Part shown: in pieces, positions 3,996-31,708 of the stretch
Numbering within the stretch: position 1 is the stretch's first letter
Layout: each line of letters begins with the position of its first letter
IMG/VR virus record: IMGVR_UViG_3300035113_000077
Location: 1 to 64,000 of that record
DNA length: 64,000 nucleotides
From: a virus
Reading direction: 5' to 3' (one strand)
Notes under the pieces: model-generated
Databases searched by the model: none
Told to the model about the DNA's origin: nothing
Seen by the model: the letters and a program-made list of their open reading frames with translations, nothing else
Program-made: the position numbers and the translations under genes

Positions 3996-4018
3996 GACAT
4001 TTCCCCTTAAATTAATTT

Positions 4019-4672
4019 CTAGTGTAAGTAGTCTGCTGAAATAATATCACCTGTCTTTGGGGCTACTGTCGTTGATATCGAATTTGTTGTTAGAGTAAAG
4101 TCAGCTCCTGCTGCATATAGTAACTGTCCATTCTTGTAGAAGTGTAAACTAAGTGCTGGACTAGGGGCACTAACTAATGTATACGTTGTATTAGCTCCGT
4201 TTACTAATCCAGTTGGAGTTTCGTTATTTACTTGAGTACCAGTTGGTACTGCAGCACAACTGAATAAGTGTGTTGCTGTTGTATATTCTAATGCTCCTGT
4301 TGTACAATTGGGAACACTCTTCCAAGCACCTGTTGCTGATGCTGTTGTAACTATAACTTGATCTGCCGCAGCGTTCGTCGGTACCGACGTCCCATTAACA
4401 TTAACCACTGTAACTGCATTTGAGCCAGACGTAGTTGCGTCTCCAGAGAGTTCTGCACCTGATAAGGTAGAACCATTGGATCGTACAACTCCTGTACTAA
4501 TAGAGGTAGCATTTGTTCCTCCATTACCAAATGGTAATGTTCCTTTTACCTGTGTAGTTAGATCTATTTGTGTCGCGGCAAATCCAACAGCAAATATCGA
4601 AATAAGAATTAGTGCAAACACTGCACCAATGCTCCGCATCTTTTCTATCCAAGGCTTGTTTGGTGTTCTCAT
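4019..4672 (-). CDS. fibre/structural-like protein with signal peptide
   Basis: Signal-like N-terminus, then IDLTTQVKGTLP (shared with 1059-3995); C-terminal ETP.G..NG..YTL..L.FYKNG domain shared with 4683-4979. Confidence 0.55.
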   Translation of the reverse strand: MRTPNKPWIEKMRSIGAVFALILISIFAVGFAATQIDLTTQVKGTLPFGNGGTNATSISTGVVRSNGSTLSGAELSGDATTSGSNAVTVVNVNGTSVPTNAAADQVIVTTASATGAWKSVPNCTTGALEYTTATHLFSCAAVPTGTQVNNETPTGLVNGANTTYTLVSAPSPALSLHFYKNGQLLYAAGADFTLTTNSISTTVAPKTGDIISADYLH

Positions 4673-4982: not shown

Positions 4983-5285
4983 CTATCCTAATGGTTCAGT
5001 TGTAACTTTCTTTTCACCATCTTTATTTGTTACAACAATTGTTTGTTTACTTGGGCCAACTACTCCATGAAATAAGATTGTCATTAAACCACCTTCAAAT
5101 GGCTTATAATCTTTTGTCATGAAGATTTTTTCAGTCTTCTTTAATCTATCAACTTCTTCTGTTACTTGACTAATATGAGTGGCCATTAAAACTTTGTTTG
5201 TGTTATGCGTAAACGGGAGCTTATCTTTTGTAAGTGGAACTCCCGGAAATGCTGCATGGAGTTCAATTGATTCTTTAAGTTTCAT
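4983..5285 (-). CDS. hypothetical protein, paralog of 5282-5596
   Basis: C-terminal FHGVVGPSKQTIVVTNKDG resembles YHGMTRSSEKKTFITTTADG of its neighbour; ATGA overlap. Confidence 0.45.
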   Translation of the reverse strand: MKLKESIELHAAFPGVPLTKDKLPFTHNTNKVLMATHISQVTEEVDRLKKTEKIFMTKDYKPFEGGLMTILFHGVVGPSKQTIVVTNKDGEKKVTTEPLG

Positions 5286-5596
5286 GCTACACTCTCCGTC
5301 CACGATTGGACTGTTCCATCAGCAGTAGTTGTTATAAATGTTTTCTTCTCTGATGATCTAGTCATTCCATGGTAAACAACTGTTTGATAAATTTTATCTG
5401 GCCCATCATCATTTCCGATTAGTTGTGCATTATTACTCATTTGGATGATATCACCACTATCTTTAATTCCCTTAACTATCTTCTGTACATTACCATAGTG
5501 CAGTTGTAATTGAGGATTAAGCTTACGTGAGATTGCCGTCTTACGATCTTTAATCATCGTTTCGGCTTCAATCTTTATCCATTGAAATAAATTCAT
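5282..5596 (-). CDS. hypothetical protein
   Basis: ORF with GAGG RBS; paralog of 4983-5285. Confidence 0.5.
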   Translation of the reverse strand: MNLFQWIKIEAETMIKDRKTAISRKLNPQLQLHYGNVQKIVKGIKDSGDIIQMSNNAQLIGNDDGPDKIYQTVVYHGMTRSSEKKTFITTTADGTVQSWTESVA

Positions 5597-15606: not shown

Positions 15607-15691
15607 TGGTGCGGATAGAGGGAATCGAACCCTCATGACTTTCGTCTTCAGATTTTAAGTCTGATGCGTATACCAGTTCCGCCATATCCGC
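15607..15691 (-). tRNA. tRNA-Leu (anticodon UAA)
   Basis: GCGGATA/TATCCGC acceptor stem, TGGCGGAACTGGTATACGC D-arm, TCAGA-CTTAAAA-TCTGA anticodon arm, long variable arm, GAGGGTTCGATTCCCTC T-arm, encoded ACCA. Confidence 0.95.
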
Positions 15692-19275: not shown

Positions 19276-22059
19276 TCATTGTACCACCTTCGATATACTA
19301 TGGTGTTTCTCTATTTTAATTACTTTCTCGTTTGATAACTCTCCAAGCAATATAGGAGAGTGGGTAACTACGAATATTGATTCGAATCGTTTTTTCATTT
19401 CAGTCAATGACTTAGCAAAACGTCTTATGTTATGTGGTGATAATCCAGCTTCTGGCTCATCTAAAATCAATACATTCGTCTTAGGTGCAATTTCTTTCAA
19501 TGCAAAGCTAGTTATTAATCCAGCAATTGAAGCTTCACCATTTGATTGGTCAGTAGCTTTCTCTCCACCATGTAAATTGATTATCTTAGGAACTAAATCT
19601 CCCTCATCAGGTTTGAATTGAACTAGCACTTCTTTATCGCAAAACATATCTGAATAATGTTCACAAGCTTTATTTAGAATCGGAGCTACTTGTGCATTTA
19701 TAAATGCAGGTAATCCATCTTTGTTGAATGCTTCTTCACAGTATGTAATAAATCTAGAATCTTTTTCCAGTTGATTTTTGTATTCTTTGAATTCAATTAA
19801 CTCTTGCTTGCGTTTCTTATATCTTTTGAATATTTCTTTCTTAGAAGCTTTTCCTCTATCAATATTACTTTGAATTTCTTTCTTCATTAAAGTCAACAAT
19901 TCTAAAACTGAGTTAGCTTTATCTCTAGCACTAGCAAAGTCTAATTTAGCTTTATCTATTTCTCCTTCATATATGGCACATAAGTTATTGTATTCAGTTC
20001 GTTTACCATATAATATCTTTAGTTTACGTTTTATCTTAATAAATGAACGTTGACTTGTTTCTATCTTTTGTTTGAATTGCTTACTACTTATTTTGCTATG
20101 GCATGTAGGACATTCATTCTTGTCTACTAAGTTCTTATAGCGACTTAATAGTTGCTCTACATTCCACAAGCTCTTATTAACTATTTCAATCTGTGTTTCA
20201 TAAGATGTTACCATCTTAGCTGCATTATCATATTTCTTTTGATACTTACGATACTTATGATTTGATTTTCTCTCTAAAGCTTTCTTCTTTGAGTGTAGCT
20301 GTTTCCACTCATGCAATTGCTGTTTATAAGCACGTTGCATTTTTTCAATTTGCTTTTTATTATCTTTACTATATTCTTTTGTAAGTCTTTTATGTTCACT
20401 TAACTCTGACTCTAAAGAATCAATAGCTTTTTGATTTTGCTCTATAGTTGTTTCATGTCTTTGTTTATACTTCTTTACTAATACTAAAGCTCTTTCAAAG
20501 CGTTCCAAATTTTGGAACTTATAAAGAATAGAAATACGATCACTGCGGCTACCAGTAATAAAAGCACTAGCAATGGTGCGGTCAATATAAACAGAATTTG
20601 CAAGTGTATGCCACGAAAACCCAGATACAGATTCAATACGCGACTGAGTTCCTTCAGTGGATGATTTATTAATTCCCGAACTGTTGTCTTTCCCTTCAAC
20701 CAACAACTGAAGCCTATTAGGATGCCTACCACGTACAATAGTATAAACTTTACCATTCGATCTTAACCTCAATCTTGCTCTTGCTTTATTCTTAGTTTGT
20801 CGTCTTGCCCATCGATCGTATTTCTGTCCTTTAAATGTCCTCCCGTATAATGATACCGGAATTGATTGGACATAGTTTGACTTGCCACTTCCATTCGATT
20901 GGTTTGACCAATCTTTATTTGTGCCTTCAATAAGCACCAATCCTTGCTTCTTAAAAAGACATTTAATTTTCTTGAAACTAAGAAAATTTTCACCTTCAAA
21001 ATCAATGAACTCAATCTGTTGACTACCATGACGACGTAGGCCTTCTGATTCTTTTAACTTTGATACTAGAAATGATATGATTTTATCTTTCTGTTTTTCT
21101 AACTTATCAGTAATTGTTTCGTTTACATAAGCTTTAATCTTTTGCTCATCTGAATCATTGACATTAACTTTAGCTTCTCTTTTTTCTTCTTGAATGAAAT
21201 TAGGAACTATTTTTATTATTGCTCCCGGATATTCACGCTCTGATAGTAATTGTGCTCTATCTAATATCTTTTTGTAATTTGAATCAGTATCTACATCAAC
21301 ATGAATTCTTACTCTAGCATTTTTCCAAGTCTTTGGTTTAATAAAGCCTGGCCAACTAGGATCATAATAACCAGGTAATGGGCTATCTATACTTTTTACT
21401 TCTGATCCTAATACTAATAAAAATCGTTTCTTCTGATTTACTTCGCCGTAGTCCATTGCAAAAGGGCTACCTACATAATGTTCTTGAGGTAAGTGAATGT
21501 GTCCACCAATAACTGCTAAATACTTCTCTGGATATAATTCGCTAAGTCTTAATCTGCTATTAGATAATGTTCCTAGCTGATTATACTTACAATCTTTTAT
21601 ATCAGCATGAAATAAAAGAATATCTTTATATTTATCCCATTCTAATTCAGATAATAGCTTTGCTCTTTTTCTTAGTTCTCTATTACTAGTTGTGAATGGC
21701 AACATTCCTATCTTGCCATTGGTTAGCTCACAAACACCTGGGCTATCAAATGTTTCAGCACCAGCTTTTCTTAGAATAGATAACCAATTTCTTTTATCAG
21801 TATACAAGCTAGATCTATCATGATTTCCTAATAATACAATTACTCTAATATTTTGGTTAGAAGCTTTACTTATAGAGCGAAACCAAAACTTTGTAACATC
21901 TAAATCAACTGGGTTATACTGAGATTTTAGGTCTCCAGCTACAACTATAGCTTCTAAAGAATTCTTTTTAGCAATACTTAATATATATTTCCAGCATTTT
22001 TTACTTCTATCAATGTTTTCATAACAAACTTGCCAATCGCTAGTTATAATTATACGCAT
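19276..22059 (-). CDS. SbcD-SbcC (Mre11-Rad50) fusion nuclease/ATPase
   Basis: Metallophosphoesterase motifs SDWQ, AGDL, LGNHD, GGHIH; Walker A SNGSGKS; CPTC zinc hook; SNGE signature; ILDEP; VTHS. Confidence 0.9.
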   Translation of the reverse strand: MRIIITSDWQVCYENIDRSKKCWKYILSIAKKNSLEAIVVAGDLKSQYNPVDLDVTKFWFRSISKASNQNIRVIVLLGNHDRSSLYTDKRNWLSILRKAGAETFDSPGVCELTNGKIGMLPFTTSNRELRKRAKLLSELEWDKYKDILLFHADIKDCKYNQLGTLSNSRLRLSELYPEKYLAVIGGHIHLPQEHYVGSPFAMDYGEVNQKKRFLLVLGSEVKSIDSPLPGYYDPSWPGFIKPKTWKNARVRIHVDVDTDSNYKKILDRAQLLSEREYPGAIIKIVPNFIQEEKREAKVNVNDSDEQKIKAYVNETITDKLEKQKDKIISFLVSKLKESEGLRRHGSQQIEFIDFEGENFLSFKKIKCLFKKQGLVLIEGTNKDWSNQSNGSGKSNYVQSIPVSLYGRTFKGQKYDRWARRQTKNKARARLRLRSNGKVYTIVRGRHPNRLQLLVEGKDNSSGINKSSTEGTQSRIESVSGFSWHTLANSVYIDRTIASAFITGSRSDRISILYKFQNLERFERALVLVKKYKQRHETTIEQNQKAIDSLESELSEHKRLTKEYSKDNKKQIEKMQRAYKQQLHEWKQLHSKKKALERKSNHKYRKYQKKYDNAAKMVTSYETQIEIVNKSLWNVEQLLSRYKNLVDKNECPTCHSKISSKQFKQKIETSQRSFIKIKRKLKILYGKRTEYNNLCAIYEGEIDKAKLDFASARDKANSVLELLTLMKKEIQSNIDRGKASKKEIFKRYKKRKQELIEFKEYKNQLEKDSRFITYCEEAFNKDGLPAFINAQVAPILNKACEHYSDMFCDKEVLVQFKPDEGDLVPKIINLHGGEKATDQSNGEASIAGLITSFALKEIAPKTNVLILDEPEAGLSPHNIRRFAKSLTEMKKRFESIFVVTHSPILLGELSNEKVIKIEKHHSISKVVQ

Positions 22060-22568
22060 TTCCAAACTCGATTCCGAATCACTGTTGAAACATGAGCTTG
22101 AGAAATGTTATATTTTTCAGCTAATTCAACCTGATTATATTTCCCAATCTTATAGTATTTTCTGATTTTTCTAACTATTTTATTTGTTAATTTAGCACTA
22201 GGATTATCCTCACCTTTTCTACTTCTTCCAATTTTAACTCCATTTAGTAAAGCATGTTCCATATTTTCTTGATTTGTTAGATATTCCAAATTTTTGTAAT
22301 GATTGTTTCCTTTATCTAAATCTTTATGATTTACTTGATGGTCGTCAGTAGGATAATCTCCAATAAATACTAGTGCAATTAAAGAATGAACTGATTTTCT
22401 ACATTTCTTCCCATCTTCATATAAAGTCAACCAACAATATCCTCTTCCATCCACCCAAGGAATTAATATTTTTCCATAATAACCCTTTATAAATCCTTCT
22501 TTACAGGCTTCATAATGTGGAAATCCTGGAATTGATTTCCATTTACTAGTTGTTTTATCTATTCTCAT
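22050..22568 (-). mobile_element. free-standing NUMOD4/HNH homing endonuclease
   Basis: WKSIPGFPHY, VHSLIA..FI, VNHKDLDKGNNHYKNLEY, KGE.NP.AKLT plus HTH. Confidence 0.85.
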
Positions 22569-24158: not shown

Positions 24159-24449
24159 CTACCACCCTTGTTGGCTTGATGCAGAAACTACTTCCGTATA
24201 GATTGATTCATAGAAACGACGCATACGATCAGCACGTTCACGAAGCATTGTTCCTAATTCTTTCTTTTGTTCTGATGTCATAGTTGATCCAATGCCAGTA
24301 ATTATAGAACTAACTTCTTTCCTAATCTCTGGCATGGGAGTATTTTCAACGTAAGCTGTATGAATTGTTCTTTCAAATTTATGAACTAAGCTTTCCAAGC
24401 TAGGTTTAGATTCTGTAGTTGCAACTTTTTCATCTTTAGGTTGTGCCAT
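24159..24449 (-). CDS. hypothetical protein
   Basis: ORF with AAGGAG RBS. Confidence 0.5.
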   Translation of the reverse strand: MAQPKDEKVATTESKPSLESLVHKFERTIHTAYVENTPMPEIRKEVSSIITGIGSTMTSEQKKELGTMLRERADRMRRFYESIYTEVVSASSQQGW

Positions 24450-25479
24450 ATTTCTCCTTCTTTGCTTCTTTTTTGATTTTGTCTACATCCATTACTTCCC
24501 ACTTGCCTTTGTGTGTTAAAATCTTTAGCCCACACTGATATCCTTCTTCACCAGTTTTATTCTTTATATTAGTTATGATTGTACGAATGCCATAAACTCT
24601 TCCATGCTTCTTTATTCTTCCACCAGATACTCTAGCAATTCTAGCTCTTACTGATGAATAATACTTTAAGGCTTTACCACCACTTGTGTATGTTGGGTTT
24701 CCAAACATCACTCCCGGAGCTGTTCTCTCTTGATTAATGAATATTCCAATTACGTTATAGTTCTTAAAAAATGAAACCCACCTCCTACATAACTTAGATA
24801 AGAATGTAGCAAGTGAAACATTTGTTCTCATGTTCTGATTATCTAAATCACCTTCCATTTCTTCTTCAGTTAGTAGCCCAGTTACTGAATCCATAATCAA
24901 AACAAATATAGCTTTTGGGTCTTGTTTACTTTTATACTTAATCCATTTTTCTATTTTCTTACAAACTTGCTGAGCTGTCTCTTGAAACTCTTCAGCTTTC
25001 TCTAATACCTTTTTATATGTTTCATAGAATTTAGCTTTAGCTTCTGCCGTTCTAGCTTCATCCATTTTCTGCTGAAGTTTCTTTAATCGTTTAATTGCTT
25101 TAGCACTAGCAGCAATCTTTGCTCTGAATAAATAAAATCTATCCATATCAACTTGCATAGTTTTATTAAATTCAGCATTATCAGAACCTTCTAAATCACC
25201 TTTTGCAACATATACATGCCGATTTTGGCTTTGACCAATTGCTCCAATGATTGTAGCTACTGTTGTTTTACCACTAGATTCTGGCCCCCATAGTTCAATC
25301 ATTGACCCAACACGAACACCATACTTACTATTTCCCAAAGCACCATTAAAATTCTTATCACCTAGATCAATATAATTATAAGTAGAAGCTGATCTTTCAA
25401 AAGTAGTGTAGCCCATTTTGGCTTCAATCAGTGCTACTTCCTCTTCAGGTGATAATTTATTGTTTTTTATTTTTCCCAT
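24436..25479 (-). CDS. RecA/UvsX-like recombinase
   Basis: IELWGPESSGKTT, DSV..L, IFINQ.R, GVMFGNP...GGKALKYYSSVR, KNK. Confidence 0.9.
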   Translation of the reverse strand: MGKIKNNKLSPEEEVALIEAKMGYTTFERSASTYNYIDLGDKNFNGALGNSKYGVRVGSMIELWGPESSGKTTVATIIGAIGQSQNRHVYVAKGDLEGSDNAEFNKTMQVDMDRFYLFRAKIAASAKAIKRLKKLQQKMDEARTAEAKAKFYETYKKVLEKAEEFQETAQQVCKKIEKWIKYKSKQDPKAIFVLIMDSVTGLLTEEEMEGDLDNQNMRTNVSLATFLSKLCRRWVSFFKNYNVIGIFINQERTAPGVMFGNPTYTSGGKALKYYSSVRARIARVSGGRIKKHGRVYGIRTIITNIKNKTGEEGYQCGLKILTHKGKWEVMDVDKIKKEAKKEKYGTT

Positions 25480-25599: not shown

Positions 25600-25947
25600 T
25601 CATACTTTATTCTCGGGGTCATACGCAATCCTAAATGTTTTTACACCATAGCCAATTAGTAAATACAATCTGTGGTTTCCATCCTTAGGCATCCACTTAC
25701 CATTTTCTAACTTTCTACACAATAGAGTTCCAATACTTTTTTTCTTCATAATTCTACTTGCATGAAGTTGAAGCCTAGGAATAAATATCTTATAGATAGG
25801 ATTATGTAACTCAATATCATCTACTGATATTTCTTTGAATCTTAATCTTTTTATTGCACCTAGAGCATCTAGTGTTCTATGCTGATGGTCAGTCCCGAAC
25901 TTCATGAGAAAAATATAAGGTACATCATCGTTCCATTTAATTTTCAT
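25600..25947 (-). CDS. ParB/Srx N-terminal-like domain protein
   Basis: IGTLLCR...W..KDGNHR...RIAYDP; paralog of 6580-6927. Confidence 0.55.
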   Translation of the reverse strand: MKIKWNDDVPYIFLMKFGTDHQHRTLDALGAIKRLRFKEISVDDIELHNPIYKIFIPRLQLHASRIMKKKSIGTLLCRKLENGKWMPKDGNHRLYLLIGYGVKTFRIAYDPENKV

Positions 25948-26096
25948 TTTTCTTTTCCAAAGTGTACGTTTTTGTATTTACTAATTGAACATCAGACTGA
26001 GTTTGAACTTCATGCACAGTTAATTTATATTTATTTAGTTCAGTTAAAAATACTTGAATCATTTCTTTCATTTACCAATTCTCCAATCTATAAATT

Positions 26097-26250
26097 AGAC
26101 AAAGTGTGTTATTACACTAAAAGGCCCACCTCAAACGAAGCACTGATTTAATCTTCGCCGATACGTTGTAGTCCATTATAAGTTGTACACCCTTATAATT
26201 GGCAACTGCCTACTCTTATCATGGCCACTTCTAAGCCCAGTACTTTGTCT
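26097..26250 (-). ncRNA. structured RNA mimicking 23S rRNA H43/H44 (uL11-binding GTPase-associated centre) with an internal insertion
   Basis: Terminal 8-bp helix AGACAAAG/CTTTGTCT enclosing GGCTTAGAAGTGGCCAT...TAAGAGT [insertion] GTGTAATAACACAC; compensatory changes relative to rRNA; intergenic. Confidence 0.75.
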
Positions 26251-26264
26251 TTTTGGTTTAGTTA

Positions 26265-27368
26265 CTATTTCTTTTTCTTGCCCTTTGCCTTAGCTTTTGC
26301 ACCTTTCTTAGGACCAGGCTTAGCCTTTCCTTTCTTTGGCTTATCATCTGAGCTTGAAGCAGCAGATGAAACAGCACTACTACTTGCAGAGCCACTAGCT
26401 GAACCACTTGCACTTCCAGATCCAGAACTCTTCTTGCTGGAACTAGATGCACTACCAGAACCACTCGATGAAGCTGAGCCACTAGCACTACCACTTCCGC
26501 TGCCGGAGCCTGAACTCTTTGCACTTCCAGAGCTTGCTGCCGATGAACTAGCAGAGCCACTTGCAGACGATGAGGCACTACCACTAGCTGCCGAGCTACT
26601 AGCTGCGGTGGATGAAGCGGTTGAACTAGTTGCTGCTTTCTTCTTAGCTTTCTTCTTTGCTGCCATACTAGAATCTCCATTCGATGAATTATTTGAACTA
26701 CTTGCACTTCCACTAGAACTTGCTGAATCACTCTTACCAGAATAAGCTTGCTTCTGCCTATTCTCATCATACTTAGGAATTATTTCTTCAAATGTTCTCA
26801 TGGCTTTCAGTACCTTCTCCGGTACCTCCGACTTATCTGGAGATATCATTGGAGAGGAATATACTGTAGCCATTCCTTGACCCTCCCTGTTAATGATAAT
26901 GTTACGACCCTTCCTAGTATCTAAGGTATCGTATTTTGTGTTCTTCAGAGTCTTCATTATTCTCCAGGCAAGAGATTTCTTACCACCAAGGTTCATGGAG
27001 AATACTTCCGGGCCTCTGAGTTTCTTTCCATCTAGAACTGCAATCTGAACAGTGAAGACTTCTTTTGCCTTCATTGTATCAGCACGTTTCTGTTTGGATT
27101 TACTATCCGAAGCTTCATCCTTCGGAATCCTTACATCGCATAACCAACAGTGACCTTTTCCACTACTGTCTTTACCACAGGTGACAACTCTTTTATCTGG
27201 CCCTACATTTGTATGAATCTGATGTGTAAAATAAATGTATGGGTCTTTATCTTTCTTAGTTCGCTTAGTTGGAAGAACTCGAATTTCATTATCTTCTTCC
27301 TTAAGCTTATAGCTGCCTCCCTTTCGTGGTTTCTTTAGATCATCGTCTAATCTATCTTTCCAACCCAT
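26265..27368 (-). CDS. gp32-like single-stranded DNA-binding protein with a long Ser/Ala/Gly tail and Lys-rich ends
   Basis: IRVLP, H..C.....C.LC Zn site, GRNI.I.REG.G..T.Y; position between polymerase and RecA. Confidence 0.7.
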   Translation of the reverse strand: MGWKDRLDDDLKKPRKGGSYKLKEEDNEIRVLPTKRTKKDKDPYIYFTHQIHTNVGPDKRVVTCGKDSSGKGHCWLCDVRIPKDEASDSKSKQKRADTMKAKEVFTVQIAVLDGKKLRGPEVFSMNLGGKKSLAWRIMKTLKNTKYDTLDTRKGRNIIINREGQGMATVYSSPMISPDKSEVPEKVLKAMRTFEEIIPKYDENRQKQAYSGKSDSASSSGSASSSNNSSNGDSSMAAKKKAKKKAATSSTASSTAASSSAASGSASSSASGSASSSAASSGSAKSSGSGSGSGSASGSASSSGSGSASSSSKKSSGSGSASGSASGSASSSAVSSAASSSDDKPKKGKAKPGPKKGAKAKAKGKKKK

Positions 27369-28837: not shown

Positions 28838-31708
28838 TCATGCTACCTTTCTCAATTCTTTTCTAACATCACGATTTCTAGCTTCACTGATAAGACAAAC
28901 TTCATTTAACCAATAATTCAGATTAACTTCTTTTCCTAGTTTCACCATTGTTCCTAATCTAAATCCAGCTTCCCCATCGGCTTTCAGTGGAACTTTCCAT
29001 TTAATTCCAAAATCATCTTTAATTGTTTTTATTACATCTTCTGTTAATAGCTTTGATCCTAGTCTATTAGCTTCTGGTAAATACTTTACTTTTGTTCTCC
29101 AAATCATCTGATCATGTACTTCCATTCGTAAATCTTGTAGCAATTTATACTTATCTTTAAATCGATGCAATAGAGCCATTGCAATAACTGATATTTGATG
29201 AGCTGTTCCTTGAATTGGACTATTGATGGCCTGATTCCCTGTAAATGTGTTTCTTGTATCATCATCACTTATTGGTCTACGAGCACCAAACAATGTCTCA
29301 ACATATCCATATTCTTCAGCTTGCTCTTTAAAGCTATCCATCAATTGACGAACACGTTTGAATTTTTTCCAGAAAGCTTCCAGTAGTTCTCCTACTCTTT
29401 CAAAACTAATCTTCACTCCCTCATTCTTTAACTGCTGGTATAAACCTTTATGTTGTTTGCCATAAATAATTGCAAAGATGATTGACTTACAAGCAGCTCT
29501 TGTATGAGCATCATTCATTATTCTTTCTACTGTCCACCCTGTTAACTCAGCTCCAATCGCAGAGTGAATGTCAACACCTTTTTCAAAGAATTCAATTAAC
29601 TTAGGATCTTCAGACATTTGAGCCAAGACCCTAACTTCCATTTGGCTAAAGTCAAATGCTAAAAATGCATATAAGTCTGAAAACTCTTTATGGCTAAATA
29701 GTCCTTCACTAAATTTATGAAATAAAACTACTAGAGCTTTCGCTCGTTCTGTTCTTTCTTTCTTCTTCTCATCTATTTCAAATAGTCTTTTATATTTTTT
29801 ATTCTTACTCTTAAAGATATTGAATAAGTTCTTATACCAGTAATCTTGTACTTTATACCATTTGTCATCTGAGATGATAAGATTTTTTATCATCTTATCT
29901 TTAGGTACATTCTGAAGGTTGATTATTCCTTTTTCTTTCTCTTCTACACTTTGCCCACCACCTCCTGATCTTAACCTAAAGGTAATTGTTCCTGTTAACC
30001 ACCAAGTTGTTCTAAGCAGCCCATCGTGCAAGTCTGCCGATTTCTTAAATGACTTCAATCCTTTTGTATTAAGTGCATTGTACCACTTATATGTTAACAG
30101 ATTAGAAATAAACTTAGTGGGTTGTTCTTCATTGATTAATTCTAAAGTAGTAGCTCTACAATTCTGTGTTACAACTTCTTTTCCTTTTACAAATATTGTA
30201 GGAGCATCTAATCCCATCTCATCATAGATGATTGGCAATAGCTGCTGAGATGAATTAGGATTTAGTTCTTTATGACCACATATTTTTTGAAGCTTTTTCT
30301 TTAATTCAGCTACTCTAACTGGAAATATTTTTGTTAGTTCTTCGTGGTACCGATAATCAAGCATTGGCCCACGATGTTGCATTTCATCAATTGTAAATGA
30401 AGCATCAATATAAACTGACATCAAAGGCTTATTAACAACACCTTTTGTCATCTGTTCTATTCTTTTGCTTAGGTCACAATCTGCTCCGTTGTATAGAACA
30501 AGCTTATTGATTGGTACTCTACTATAATCTAATGTTCCTAACTTTCTTCCCTTTTTATAATCTTCACCTGGTGGTAAAGCTTCTGGCATTGTTACTTCTT
30601 TATAGCCAGCAAATTCAGGGAACCATCTCTCAGCTAATCTACTTAATCCATAAGCTTTTATACTTGAATCAAAGAAGTATGCACCTAACTCAGAGTCATA
30701 ATCAAACCCTCTTATCTTCCATCCATAAATTCTATATGTTGCAGGAACATCACTACATCCATGATGAAAGATCTTCTTTATCTTTTTATCCGTAAGTAAG
30801 AGCTTGGTGTATTTCTTAACTATCTTTCTATCTGGATTATCTAAGTTCTTTGGGTGGTCTAGAATGAATACGTAAGTTAAATGTTTCTTTGGGGAGAAGC
30901 CATATACTAGTCCAATATCTTTTTTCCATTCAAAATCAACAGCTATACTTTGTTTTCTTTTAAGAGCATAAAACTTAATATCTCTATAAGCTTTCTTGGC
31001 TAGCTCTTTTGTATCAACTTTAATATACTGTTGCTTTAATAAAGTTCTAAAGTTTTCTAAACCTTTAGGAGCTTTGATCTGTTTGCCAAAAGCTTCTTCA
31101 GCAGCTAATTTCAATGTGGCTTGAAAGTCTTTAAATCGTTGGCCTTTCTTACCAGCATATAAAAAGAAAGCAGGATGATCTGTAATTATAGCTTTTGCTT
31201 TTAGCTTTTCTGACCAGAATATTTTTGTATTCTTTTTATATTCTCTACCTAGAACTTGTCTTGCAGCAACTAATCCAAGAATAAGAATTACTTTAGCTTT
31301 AGATTTATTTAAAGCATTTTCAGTATAGATAGAGCAGCAATGAATTTCTTCCTTGTTTGGGGTATTTCTCTGAACTCTATACCCACTAGAATCTTTTTCA
31401 TTTGGCAAACATCTTACAGAGTTTTGAACATCACAATACTTTCTCTTTACTCCTAACTTCTTAAACTCATGCCAGAGGATTTCACCTGTTGGCCCAACTA
31501 GTTCTTTCTTTCTCTTTACTTCTTTTGCACCAGGATTTTGTGCCCATATAAATAATCGTTTACCTTTGACTTTACCCATTACTGGACCAAAGCCATACTT
31601 AAATCCTTTTCTTGCTGGGCAATGGTCACAACCACGCTCATCTAAAGTTAGCTTTTTGTTCTTAACTTTTTTAGTTTCGATCTGTACCAGATTTTCGTAG
31701 GATGGCAT
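28838..31708 (-). CDS. family A DNA polymerase with N-terminal uracil-DNA-glycosylase-like domain (SPO1-type architecture)
   Basis: N-term CxxC, QNPG..E...VGPTG, N.VRC.P, HPA; 3'-5' exo VDFE/YNGAD; NLQN, DFSQMEVR (motif A), R...K...F...YG (B), VHDQ (C). Confidence 0.9.
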   Translation of the reverse strand: MPSYENLVQIETKKVKNKKLTLDERGCDHCPARKGFKYGFGPVMGKVKGKRLFIWAQNPGAKEVKRKKELVGPTGEILWHEFKKLGVKRKYCDVQNSVRCLPNEKDSSGYRVQRNTPNKEEIHCCSIYTENALNKSKAKVILILGLVAARQVLGREYKKNTKIFWSEKLKAKAIITDHPAFFLYAGKKGQRFKDFQATLKLAAEEAFGKQIKAPKGLENFRTLLKQQYIKVDTKELAKKAYRDIKFYALKRKQSIAVDFEWKKDIGLVYGFSPKKHLTYVFILDHPKNLDNPDRKIVKKYTKLLLTDKKIKKIFHHGCSDVPATYRIYGWKIRGFDYDSELGAYFFDSSIKAYGLSRLAERWFPEFAGYKEVTMPEALPPGEDYKKGRKLGTLDYSRVPINKLVLYNGADCDLSKRIEQMTKGVVNKPLMSVYIDASFTIDEMQHRGPMLDYRYHEELTKIFPVRVAELKKKLQKICGHKELNPNSSQQLLPIIYDEMGLDAPTIFVKGKEVVTQNCRATTLELINEEQPTKFISNLLTYKWYNALNTKGLKSFKKSADLHDGLLRTTWWLTGTITFRLRSGGGGQSVEEKEKGIINLQNVPKDKMIKNLIISDDKWYKVQDYWYKNLFNIFKSKNKKYKRLFEIDEKKKERTERAKALVVLFHKFSEGLFSHKEFSDLYAFLAFDFSQMEVRVLAQMSEDPKLIEFFEKGVDIHSAIGAELTGWTVERIMNDAHTRAACKSIIFAIIYGKQHKGLYQQLKNEGVKISFERVGELLEAFWKKFKRVRQLMDSFKEQAEEYGYVETLFGARRPISDDDTRNTFTGNQAINSPIQGTAHQISVIAMALLHRFKDKYKLLQDLRMEVHDQMIWRTKVKYLPEANRLGSKLLTEDVIKTIKDDFGIKWKVPLKADGEAGFRLGTMVKLGKEVNLNYWLNEVCLISEARNRDVRKELRKVA

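Follow-up and report, generated by a model that had tools for sequence, protein, structure and literature searches.

An uncultured phage carries, between its SSB and recA genes, a 154-nt RNA element (window 26250..26097, minus strand) that, judged from sequence, is a non-coding RNA of a large and apparently undescribed phage family. The window is the whole stretch of DNA analysed, positions 1 to 64,000 of IMG/VR virus record IMGVR_UViG_3300035113_000077; its G+C content is 34.7%, and the complete record measures 98.6 kb. An 8-bp helix joins the two ends of the RNA, which together reproduce the three-way junction formed in the GTPase-associated centre of 23S rRNA by the top of H42, H43 and H44. 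The long-range contacts by which this centre folds are retained, and a lineage-specific 90-nt domain sits inside the 5' strand of H44. Our preferred reading, to which we assign a probability of about 0.5, is that the RNA would imitate the GTPase-associated centre as a separate molecule away from the ribosome. Its likeliest partner would be host uL11, the protein that recognises exactly this fold, and the insertion would be a second, lineage-specific module that adds an adaptor-like function.

Architecture of the RNA element

The GTPase-associated centre (E. coli 23S nt 1051-1108) is the minimal uL11- and thiostrepton-binding domain. The phage RNA shares with it the three-way junction, the H43 and H44 loops, the U1060-A1088 pair, the G1071 and 1072 triples and the junction-loop UAA (Table 1), and 13/15 nucleotides of the H43-like hairpin are identical to E. 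coli 23S rRNA (L121). The base triple of the window copy is U.U-A (U1072 at 26227, U1092 at 26116, A1099 at 26109), and position 1073 is G. Unlike the centre within the 2.9-kb rRNA, the phage RNA is a free-standing gene with its own closing helix, lies between replication genes, has its H44 split by the 90-nt domain and a UUU-purine linker and, in the window copy, lacks the lower pairs of H43 and the pair that closes the junction loop. The minus-strand sequence 26250..26097 quoted in a first-pass annotation of this DNA agrees letter for letter with the window. We note that the E. coli sequence L121 (NZ_CP048603.1) is identical to the E. coli quotation of that annotation over 1056-1108 and reads differently just 5' of G1055.

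Table 1 Features of the RNA element and neighbouring genes in the window (nucleotide names follow 23S rRNA numbering)
Feature	Window position	Strand	Details
gp32-like SSB gene	26265..27368	(-)	Pfam PF08804, E 2.7e-10; upstream, stop 14 nt before the RNA
P1 closing helix, 5' strand	26243..26250	(-)	Replaces top of H42; last G = G1055; 8 perfect bp (26250-26243 with 26104-26097), ending in G1055-C1104
5' junction, 5 nt	26238..26242	(-)	C1059 (26240), bulged U1060 (26239)
H43-like hairpin	26223..26237	(-)	3-bp stem, 9-nt loop, UUAGAAG; A1067 = 26232, G1071 = 26228, U1072 = 26227
Compact 3' junction, 11 nt	26212..26222	(-)	A1077 through U1090, in the order A1077, U1078, G1079 (26220), one nt, invariant UAA, G1087-A1088 (26214)-G1089-U1090
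Inserted domain, 90 nt	26122..26211	(-)	4-bp closing stem AGGC/GCCU
Linker UUU + purine (UUUA)	26118..26121	(-)	Joins insertion to H44 hairpin
H44-like hairpin	26108..26117	(-)	G1091-C1100, U1092 (26116)-A1099 (26109)
GUAAUA loop of H44-like hairpin	26115-26110	(-)	A1095 = 26113
A1101-C1102-A1103	26105..26107	(-)	Pair back to U1090 and G1087
P1 closing helix, 3' strand	26097..26104	(-)	First C = C1104
44-codon ORF	25937..26071	(-)	Downstream; GGAG 26084-26081; ATG about 25-26 nt past the RNA
recA	24436-25479	(-)	Downstream of the 44-codon ORF and a 115-aa ORF

Family size, distribution and membership

A 16-nt seed pattern from the H43-like hairpin was searched in IMG/VR. In most of the matches listed, conserved 5' and 3' halves, the former long, flank a variable middle and are held together by a clamping helix of variable sequence, and a second IMG/VR scan, seeded from the 3' half alone, recovered the same architecture among the matches listed. 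Both scans and one metagenome scan together give a family sample of at least 111 copies and at least 102 distinct sequences; member length among the matches listed is 105-414 nt (median 197). A scan of bacterial genomes added 16 further copies. Copies were found in genomes labelled Clostridia, Bacteroidales, Neisseriaceae, Thioploca, Gastranaerophilales, Saccharibacteria and Parcubacteria, and because the carrier genomes represent many phyla, the partner of the RNA, if it has one, should be universal.

Membership of the window copy was assessed with R1, a covariance model built from 26 aligned phage members, window copy excluded, with the structure written by hand. R1 matches window positions 26097-26250 end to end (model positions 1-168, 58.9 bits, E 5.7e-15), which is the only significant match in the whole 98.6-kb record; the other compact-junction members, described below, score 58-64 bits. 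The model also recovers true 23S rRNA at full length, both from E. coli (L121:56-116, about nt 1051-1108, 45.2 bits) and from the 23S genes of two Clostridia (59.5 and 49.6 bits), and there the alignment skips the insertion. One canonical member is identical to E. coli 23S rRNA at 36/36 positions. Family hallmarks present in the window copy are the closing helix, the H43-like hairpin, the bulged U1060, A1088, a covarying triple state, a helix-closed insertion after U1090, the UUU + purine linker, the G-U-A-x-x-A H44 loop and A1101. It does not have the canonical junction of the majority (a lower H43 of three pairs plus a mini-hairpin of 5 nt at 1082-1086), but its layout recurs in eight further sequences and is therefore the mark of a subclass and no ground for exclusion.

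Rfam 15 at gathering scores found one tRNA only in the whole window, in agreement with the first-pass annotation, which had named no family for the element but had allowed for one. At E up to 10, the element region returned a 13.7-bit match to DUF805b, rejected as an identity because it falls below the cut-off of 35.6, and two noise matches. Seven canonical loci searched with the same models gave only tRNAs and one GOLLD, and a full-text literature search found no published description of the family. The split partial LSU rRNA match that the annotation had expected from Rfam is absent even at E up to 10; this, together with the flanking SSB gene and phage ORFs and the split H44, excludes a true 23S gene or fragment.

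Covariation and conservation

Covariation across the family carries the case for a selected structure. In alignment A1, paired cells reach 97.3%, compared with 68.6% in shuffles, and the covariation score is 0.551, compared with 0.133 in shuffles and 0.09-0.14 with slid partners; 0/500 shuffles reach the observed score. The P1 closing helix has 11/14 pairs that change on both sides in A1, and all four pairs of the insertion closing stem covary, the position of this stem being common to every member. The 1072/1092-1099 triple was followed in a 62-member set found via the 5' half, in which 1072, 1073 and the entire 3' half were unconstrained. Its state is C.C-G in 47 members and U.U-A in 14, and one member is mixed (Fisher p 5e-13); where the 3' half used for the search was held at C-G, all 62 members found have C at 1072. 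The triple has switched state more than once: both states are present in both junction classes, and members L122 and L129 have an insertion module in common and different triple states.

The junction behaves similarly to that of rRNA. Pairs 1057:1081 and 1058:1080 are Watson-Crick in 41/41 members of the 5'-half set, with two and four pair types, respectively. In rRNA, 1082-1086 forms a mini-hairpin with two stacked adenines, in which the U-A pair of E. coli is replaced by C-G in H. marismortui (PMC2952862); in the 5'-half set, 1082:1086 is U-A in 22 members and C-G in 14. Nucleotides unchanged in the 62-member 5'-half set (62/62) are U1060, A1077, U1083, A1084, A1085 and A1088 in the junction strands, and G1093, U1094, A1098 and A1101 further 3'. 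C1102 is present in 55/62 members and A1095 is kept in 94% of members of that set; a set whose search left the H43 loop unconstrained retains A1067 and A1070 in 87% of members each and G1068 in 77%. The rRNA fold is held by the contacts C1072/C1092-G1099 and G1071/G1091-C1100 plus the junction adenines (PMC2952862), and L11 residues contact the U1060-A1088 pair (PMC2175356). By this comparison, the fold and the pair recognised by uL11 are strictly kept, whereas conservation of the nucleotides that meet factors and thiostrepton is high but incomplete.

Covariation of helices and triple across the family marks the element as a structured, self-closed RNA whose uL11-domain tertiary fold is maintained by selection, not a decaying rRNA scrap. 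The first-pass annotation had read the single copy in this way and had looked to homologs, a covariance model and the 1072/1092-1099 triple for confirmation, and the 26-member model and the covarying triple bear it out. A functionless remnant of host 23S rRNA, or similarity by chance, would be in keeping with the close similarity of the core to rRNA, but it leaves unexplained the compensatory changes throughout the helices and the triple and the more than 100 distinct members with an insertion site in common. Resident 23S rRNA also differs from the copy at several core positions in three copy-carrying bacterial genomes, which rules out a host-matched copy or recent host capture in those three. 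Scrap or chance has practically no probability left, being refuted by the covariation, the triple states and the R1 match (E 6e-15).

A compact-junction subclass

The window copy belongs to a rarer subclass, overlooked in the first-pass annotation, in which the junction strands are shortened, the 5' one to 5 nt (canonically 6) and the A1077-U1090 stretch to 11 nt (canonically 14). A pattern for the compact layout matched one more viral contig and eight metagenome contigs, and the same 11-nt layout is found in L122-L125 and L127-L130; seven distinct full-length members of the subclass are alignable. They keep U1060, A1077, U1078, the junction-loop UAA and G1087 to U1090. The 1057-1058:1080-1081 pairs are absent from them, as is the pair that closes the 1082-1086 junction loop. 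The sole remaining lower pair, 1059:1079, covaries: three members, the window copy (26240/26220) among them, have C-G, and the other four have G-C. With its shortened junction strands and missing pairs, the window copy is less faithful to rRNA than had been implied. The missing pairs adjoin the groove read by uL11, so binding by the subclass may be weaker or altered.

The subclass also differs in the linker, which in nearly all members consists of a three-U run followed by G (55/62) or A (7/62). The purine is A in 5/7 compact members and in 2/55 others (p 6e-5), and this enrichment hints that the linker touches the junction.

The inserted domain

Within the window insertion, predicted folds place an 8-bp hairpin at 26199-26175 and, at 26174-26123, a branched arm that includes a hairpin of 5-7 bp. 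The insertion had been described as ~95 nt long and closed by AGGC/GCCT: the closing stem is there, and the size is 90 nt, or 94 nt with the UUUA linker. Of the internal stems proposed at the same time, the 8-bp and 5-bp hairpins appear in computed folds, whereas the GTAG/CTAC stem appears in none and competes with the family-conserved closing stem. Thermodynamic stability is unremarkable (z -1.76 for the whole element, -0.89 for the insertion). No sarcin-ricin-like motif was found in the insertion, and the only motif that it has in common with others is a 9-nt match with L123, near chance level.

The interior of the insertion shows no sequence conservation across the family. One module (C-rich run, GNRA-like turn and GGUAAGG right before the linker) is present in 21/102 members, for example L122:1026-1280 and L129:1243-1557, and other recurrent modules exist, such as one with GUGCGAAAUG in 9 members; these patterns suggest modular, interchangeable insertions. 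A single phage copy in the sample is uninterrupted, a 66-nt insertion-free sequence (L017:3710-3775, R1 34 bits, E 1e-8) beside a tRNA-like sequence on a 42-kb viral contig. Some loci hold more than one copy. Two differing copies stand in tandem in one phage tRNA array (L081:5127-5359 and L081:5441-5708), with a tRNA gene between them, and differ in their insertions. A contig of a Candidatus Limenecus genome bin (L236) has three R1 matches within 1.4 kb (3996-4079, 4190-4344 and 5204-5386, at 41, 18 and 93 bits), the 84-nt copy having a very short insertion.

The near-universal insertion and the UUU-purine linker have no rRNA counterpart, so mimicry alone is insufficient to explain the molecule. 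The insertion could be the real working part, if the rRNA-like junction were only a very stable clamp that presents and protects it and had no ribosomal partner. Such a scaffold would fit an insertion that occupies a constant place behind an invariant linker in nearly every member, the modularity seen in 21/102 members, and the role of almost every invariant core nucleotide as a fold contact (PMC2952862). It fits poorly with the insertion-free 66-nt copy, with the lack of any sequence common to insertions across the family and with the exposed A1067 and A1095, which are still mostly conserved, and we consider it unlikely.

Genomic context

The gap from the SSB stop to the next ORF is 193 nt and is almost entirely occupied by the element, and no promoter-like or terminator-like site was found between the SSB gene and the 44-codon ORF. 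After recA come a clamp-loader gene and a fused SbcD-SbcC gene, the latter a single 929-aa ORF with SbcD-like phosphoesterase and SbcC-like ATPase domains (19276-22065, minus strand). On the same strand, positions 28838-31708 encode a 956-aa family A DNA polymerase with an N-terminal uracil-DNA glycosylase superfamily domain (Pfam UDG, E 8e-14). The C-terminal part of SSB (26265-26770, minus strand) is a long low-complexity tail, and a 170-aa ORF that overlaps it in a different frame (26258-26770) is probably not a real gene. Among cultured phages, the matches to SSB and RecA reach only 27-31% identity. Megablast and blastn found no cultured relatives among GenBank phages (22-nt matches to Yersinia phages, E 7, were dismissed as chance), an exact 30-nt search of viral contigs for close relatives returned 0, and a search with the SSB core found no close relatives of the window phage.

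Among the matches listed, 60/111 copies (54%) have a same-strand tRNA within 500 nt and 37/111 have no tRNA in the locus. The tRNA genes within 500 nt of copies are all on the same strand (60/60, among the matches listed), which fixes the transcribed strand, and these recurrent neighbours suggest that family RNAs mature together with tRNAs. The window copy, unlike that 54% of members, adjoins no same-strand tRNA gene; the closest tRNA is at 15607-15691. One tRNA-rich phage locus contains a GOLLD RNA (L034:685-1176, Rfam 164.8 bits) in addition to the family core motif.

No conserved protein neighbour emerged from ORFs within 4 kb of 102 loci, the largest cluster covering 6/102 loci and overlapping the RNA itself. 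The 98.6-kb record, estimated to be 83% complete, contains no uL11, bL12, Ro60/TROVE or RelA_SpoT gene, and PF05731 (Ro60/TROVE) has no match in it. Taken with the many host phyla, the absence of a conserved protein neighbour and of phage partner genes makes a host component the likely partner.

The position of the window copy could also be read as that of a cis element of the SSB-recA transcript, either a uL11-sensing switch or a block to 3' exonucleases that stabilises the upstream SSB message. The copy fills the intergenic gap, adjoins no promoter-like or terminator-like site and has no tRNA neighbour, all of which would suit such an element. However, the next ORF has both its ribosome-binding site and its start outside the structure, a simple exonuclease block needs no elaborate covarying tertiary fold, and members of the family are self-closed, lie mostly among tRNA genes and have no fixed relation to ORFs. 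We regard a cis element as quite improbable for the window copy, even though this copy does lie within an operon. As a general role, the uL11-sensing switch for recA/dnaX/sbcCD put forward in the first-pass annotation is unlikely given self-closed members, 54% of them near tRNAs, and no conserved protein neighbour.

Comparison with known RNAs

Ribosomal-protein leaders, such as the L10 leader (RF00557), likewise imitate the rRNA site of a ribosomal protein off the ribosome, and the L1 site in the L11 operon leader is another rRNA-mimicking autoregulatory leader. These are cis-acting 5' leaders of cellular ribosomal-protein operons and usually loose mimics, whereas the phage RNA is self-closed, near-exact down to tertiary contacts and typically found among tRNAs, with no ribosomal-protein gene near. 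To our knowledge, no uL11-binding leader has been described. The window copy was rejected as a leader on its neighbours (SSB, small ORFs and recA), the lack of an Rfam leader match and the lack of a uL11 or bL12 gene.

Bacterial and phage Y RNAs, the partners of Ro60, are modular non-coding RNAs that also occur in phages and have one module that copies tRNA (PMC4201824); the parallel would lie in an adaptor-like logic. The present family copies a different fold, and no Ro60-binding stem is evident in the window copy. GOLLD (RF02032) and ROOL are function-unknown structured phage RNAs in tRNA arrays, as are many family members, but they have no sequence or structure similarity to the element, and Rfam models do not match it.

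Possible roles of the RNA

If the RNA is an off-ribosome imitation of the GTPase-associated centre, as we prefer to read it, it would be cut out of the SSB-recA operon transcript or be active as part of that transcript. Binding of uL11 is plausible from the sequence comparison, since U1060-A1088, the pair contacted by L11 (PMC2175356), is invariant. Most invariant nucleotides are also needed for the fold, so their conservation is no proof of a protein partner. The variation at A1067 (kept in 87%) and G1068 (77%) speaks against full mimicry, as some factor contacts of the real site are lost.

On the ribosome, the GTPase-associated centre meets the elbow of the incoming tRNA and is needed for RelA activation. 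Candidate pay-offs of an imitation would be a change in the amount of uL11 available, failure of RelA activation where it depends on uL11, or sequestration of other molecules that read the site. Damping of RelA/ppGpp and a decoy for thiopeptides or toxins, consequences that had been raised in the first-pass annotation, are speculative. A more specific scheme, which we entertain as a long shot, is that the uL11-loaded RNA forms a miniature cytoplasmic stalk base that drains uL11 or traps deacylated tRNA, RelA or ribosome-dependent defence nucleases, so that the host's translation-based alarm is blinded, with the swappable insertion picking a second partner. If true, this would be a new phage strategy, in which a functional ribosome centre is counterfeited in RNA.

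The exposed loops invite another explanation, that the free copy soaks up an enzyme or toxin attacking this rRNA site and so spares the ribosomes that the phage needs. Targets of such a decoy could be an ADP-ribosyltransferase, methyltransferase or nuclease of the host or a competitor, or a ribosome-dependent defence effector. A toxin aimed at the GTPase-associated centre exists in Tre23, which ADP-ribosylates its H44 (PMC8661411); mimicry by phage RNAs has a precedent in the ToxI mimic (PMC3475682); and A1095 (94%) and A1067 (87%) are kept though dispensable for folding. However, the known H44 toxin is an interbacterial weapon and not an anti-phage system, the insertion splits H44 right beside the putative target, the loop nucleotides are more variable than in rRNA, and no defence or counter-defence gene lies consistently near the RNA at 102 loci. 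We judge a decoy of this kind to be doubtful.

Significance

Phage-supplied tRNAs are known, as are a few phage-supplied ribosomal proteins. In the literature, the closest theme is ribosomal proteins carried by phages, among them the stalk protein bL12 (PMC6375957), and we found no description of a phage RNA that rebuilds a functional ribosome centre, tertiary contacts included. The system is tractable, as the RNA has 154 nt, uL11 is easily purified and related copies exist in cultured gut Clostridia. Cultured strains with a prophage-borne copy are Flintibacter muris DSM 110149, Clostridiaceae bacterium strain 9 and bacterium D16-76. The family constitutes a natural mutational series for the uL11-binding fold, in which the triple and the junction pair covary as rRNA comparisons had predicted, and its compact-junction subclass shows which parts of the fold are dispensable. 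Its large size, across phages of many phyla, points to a common target in host translation.
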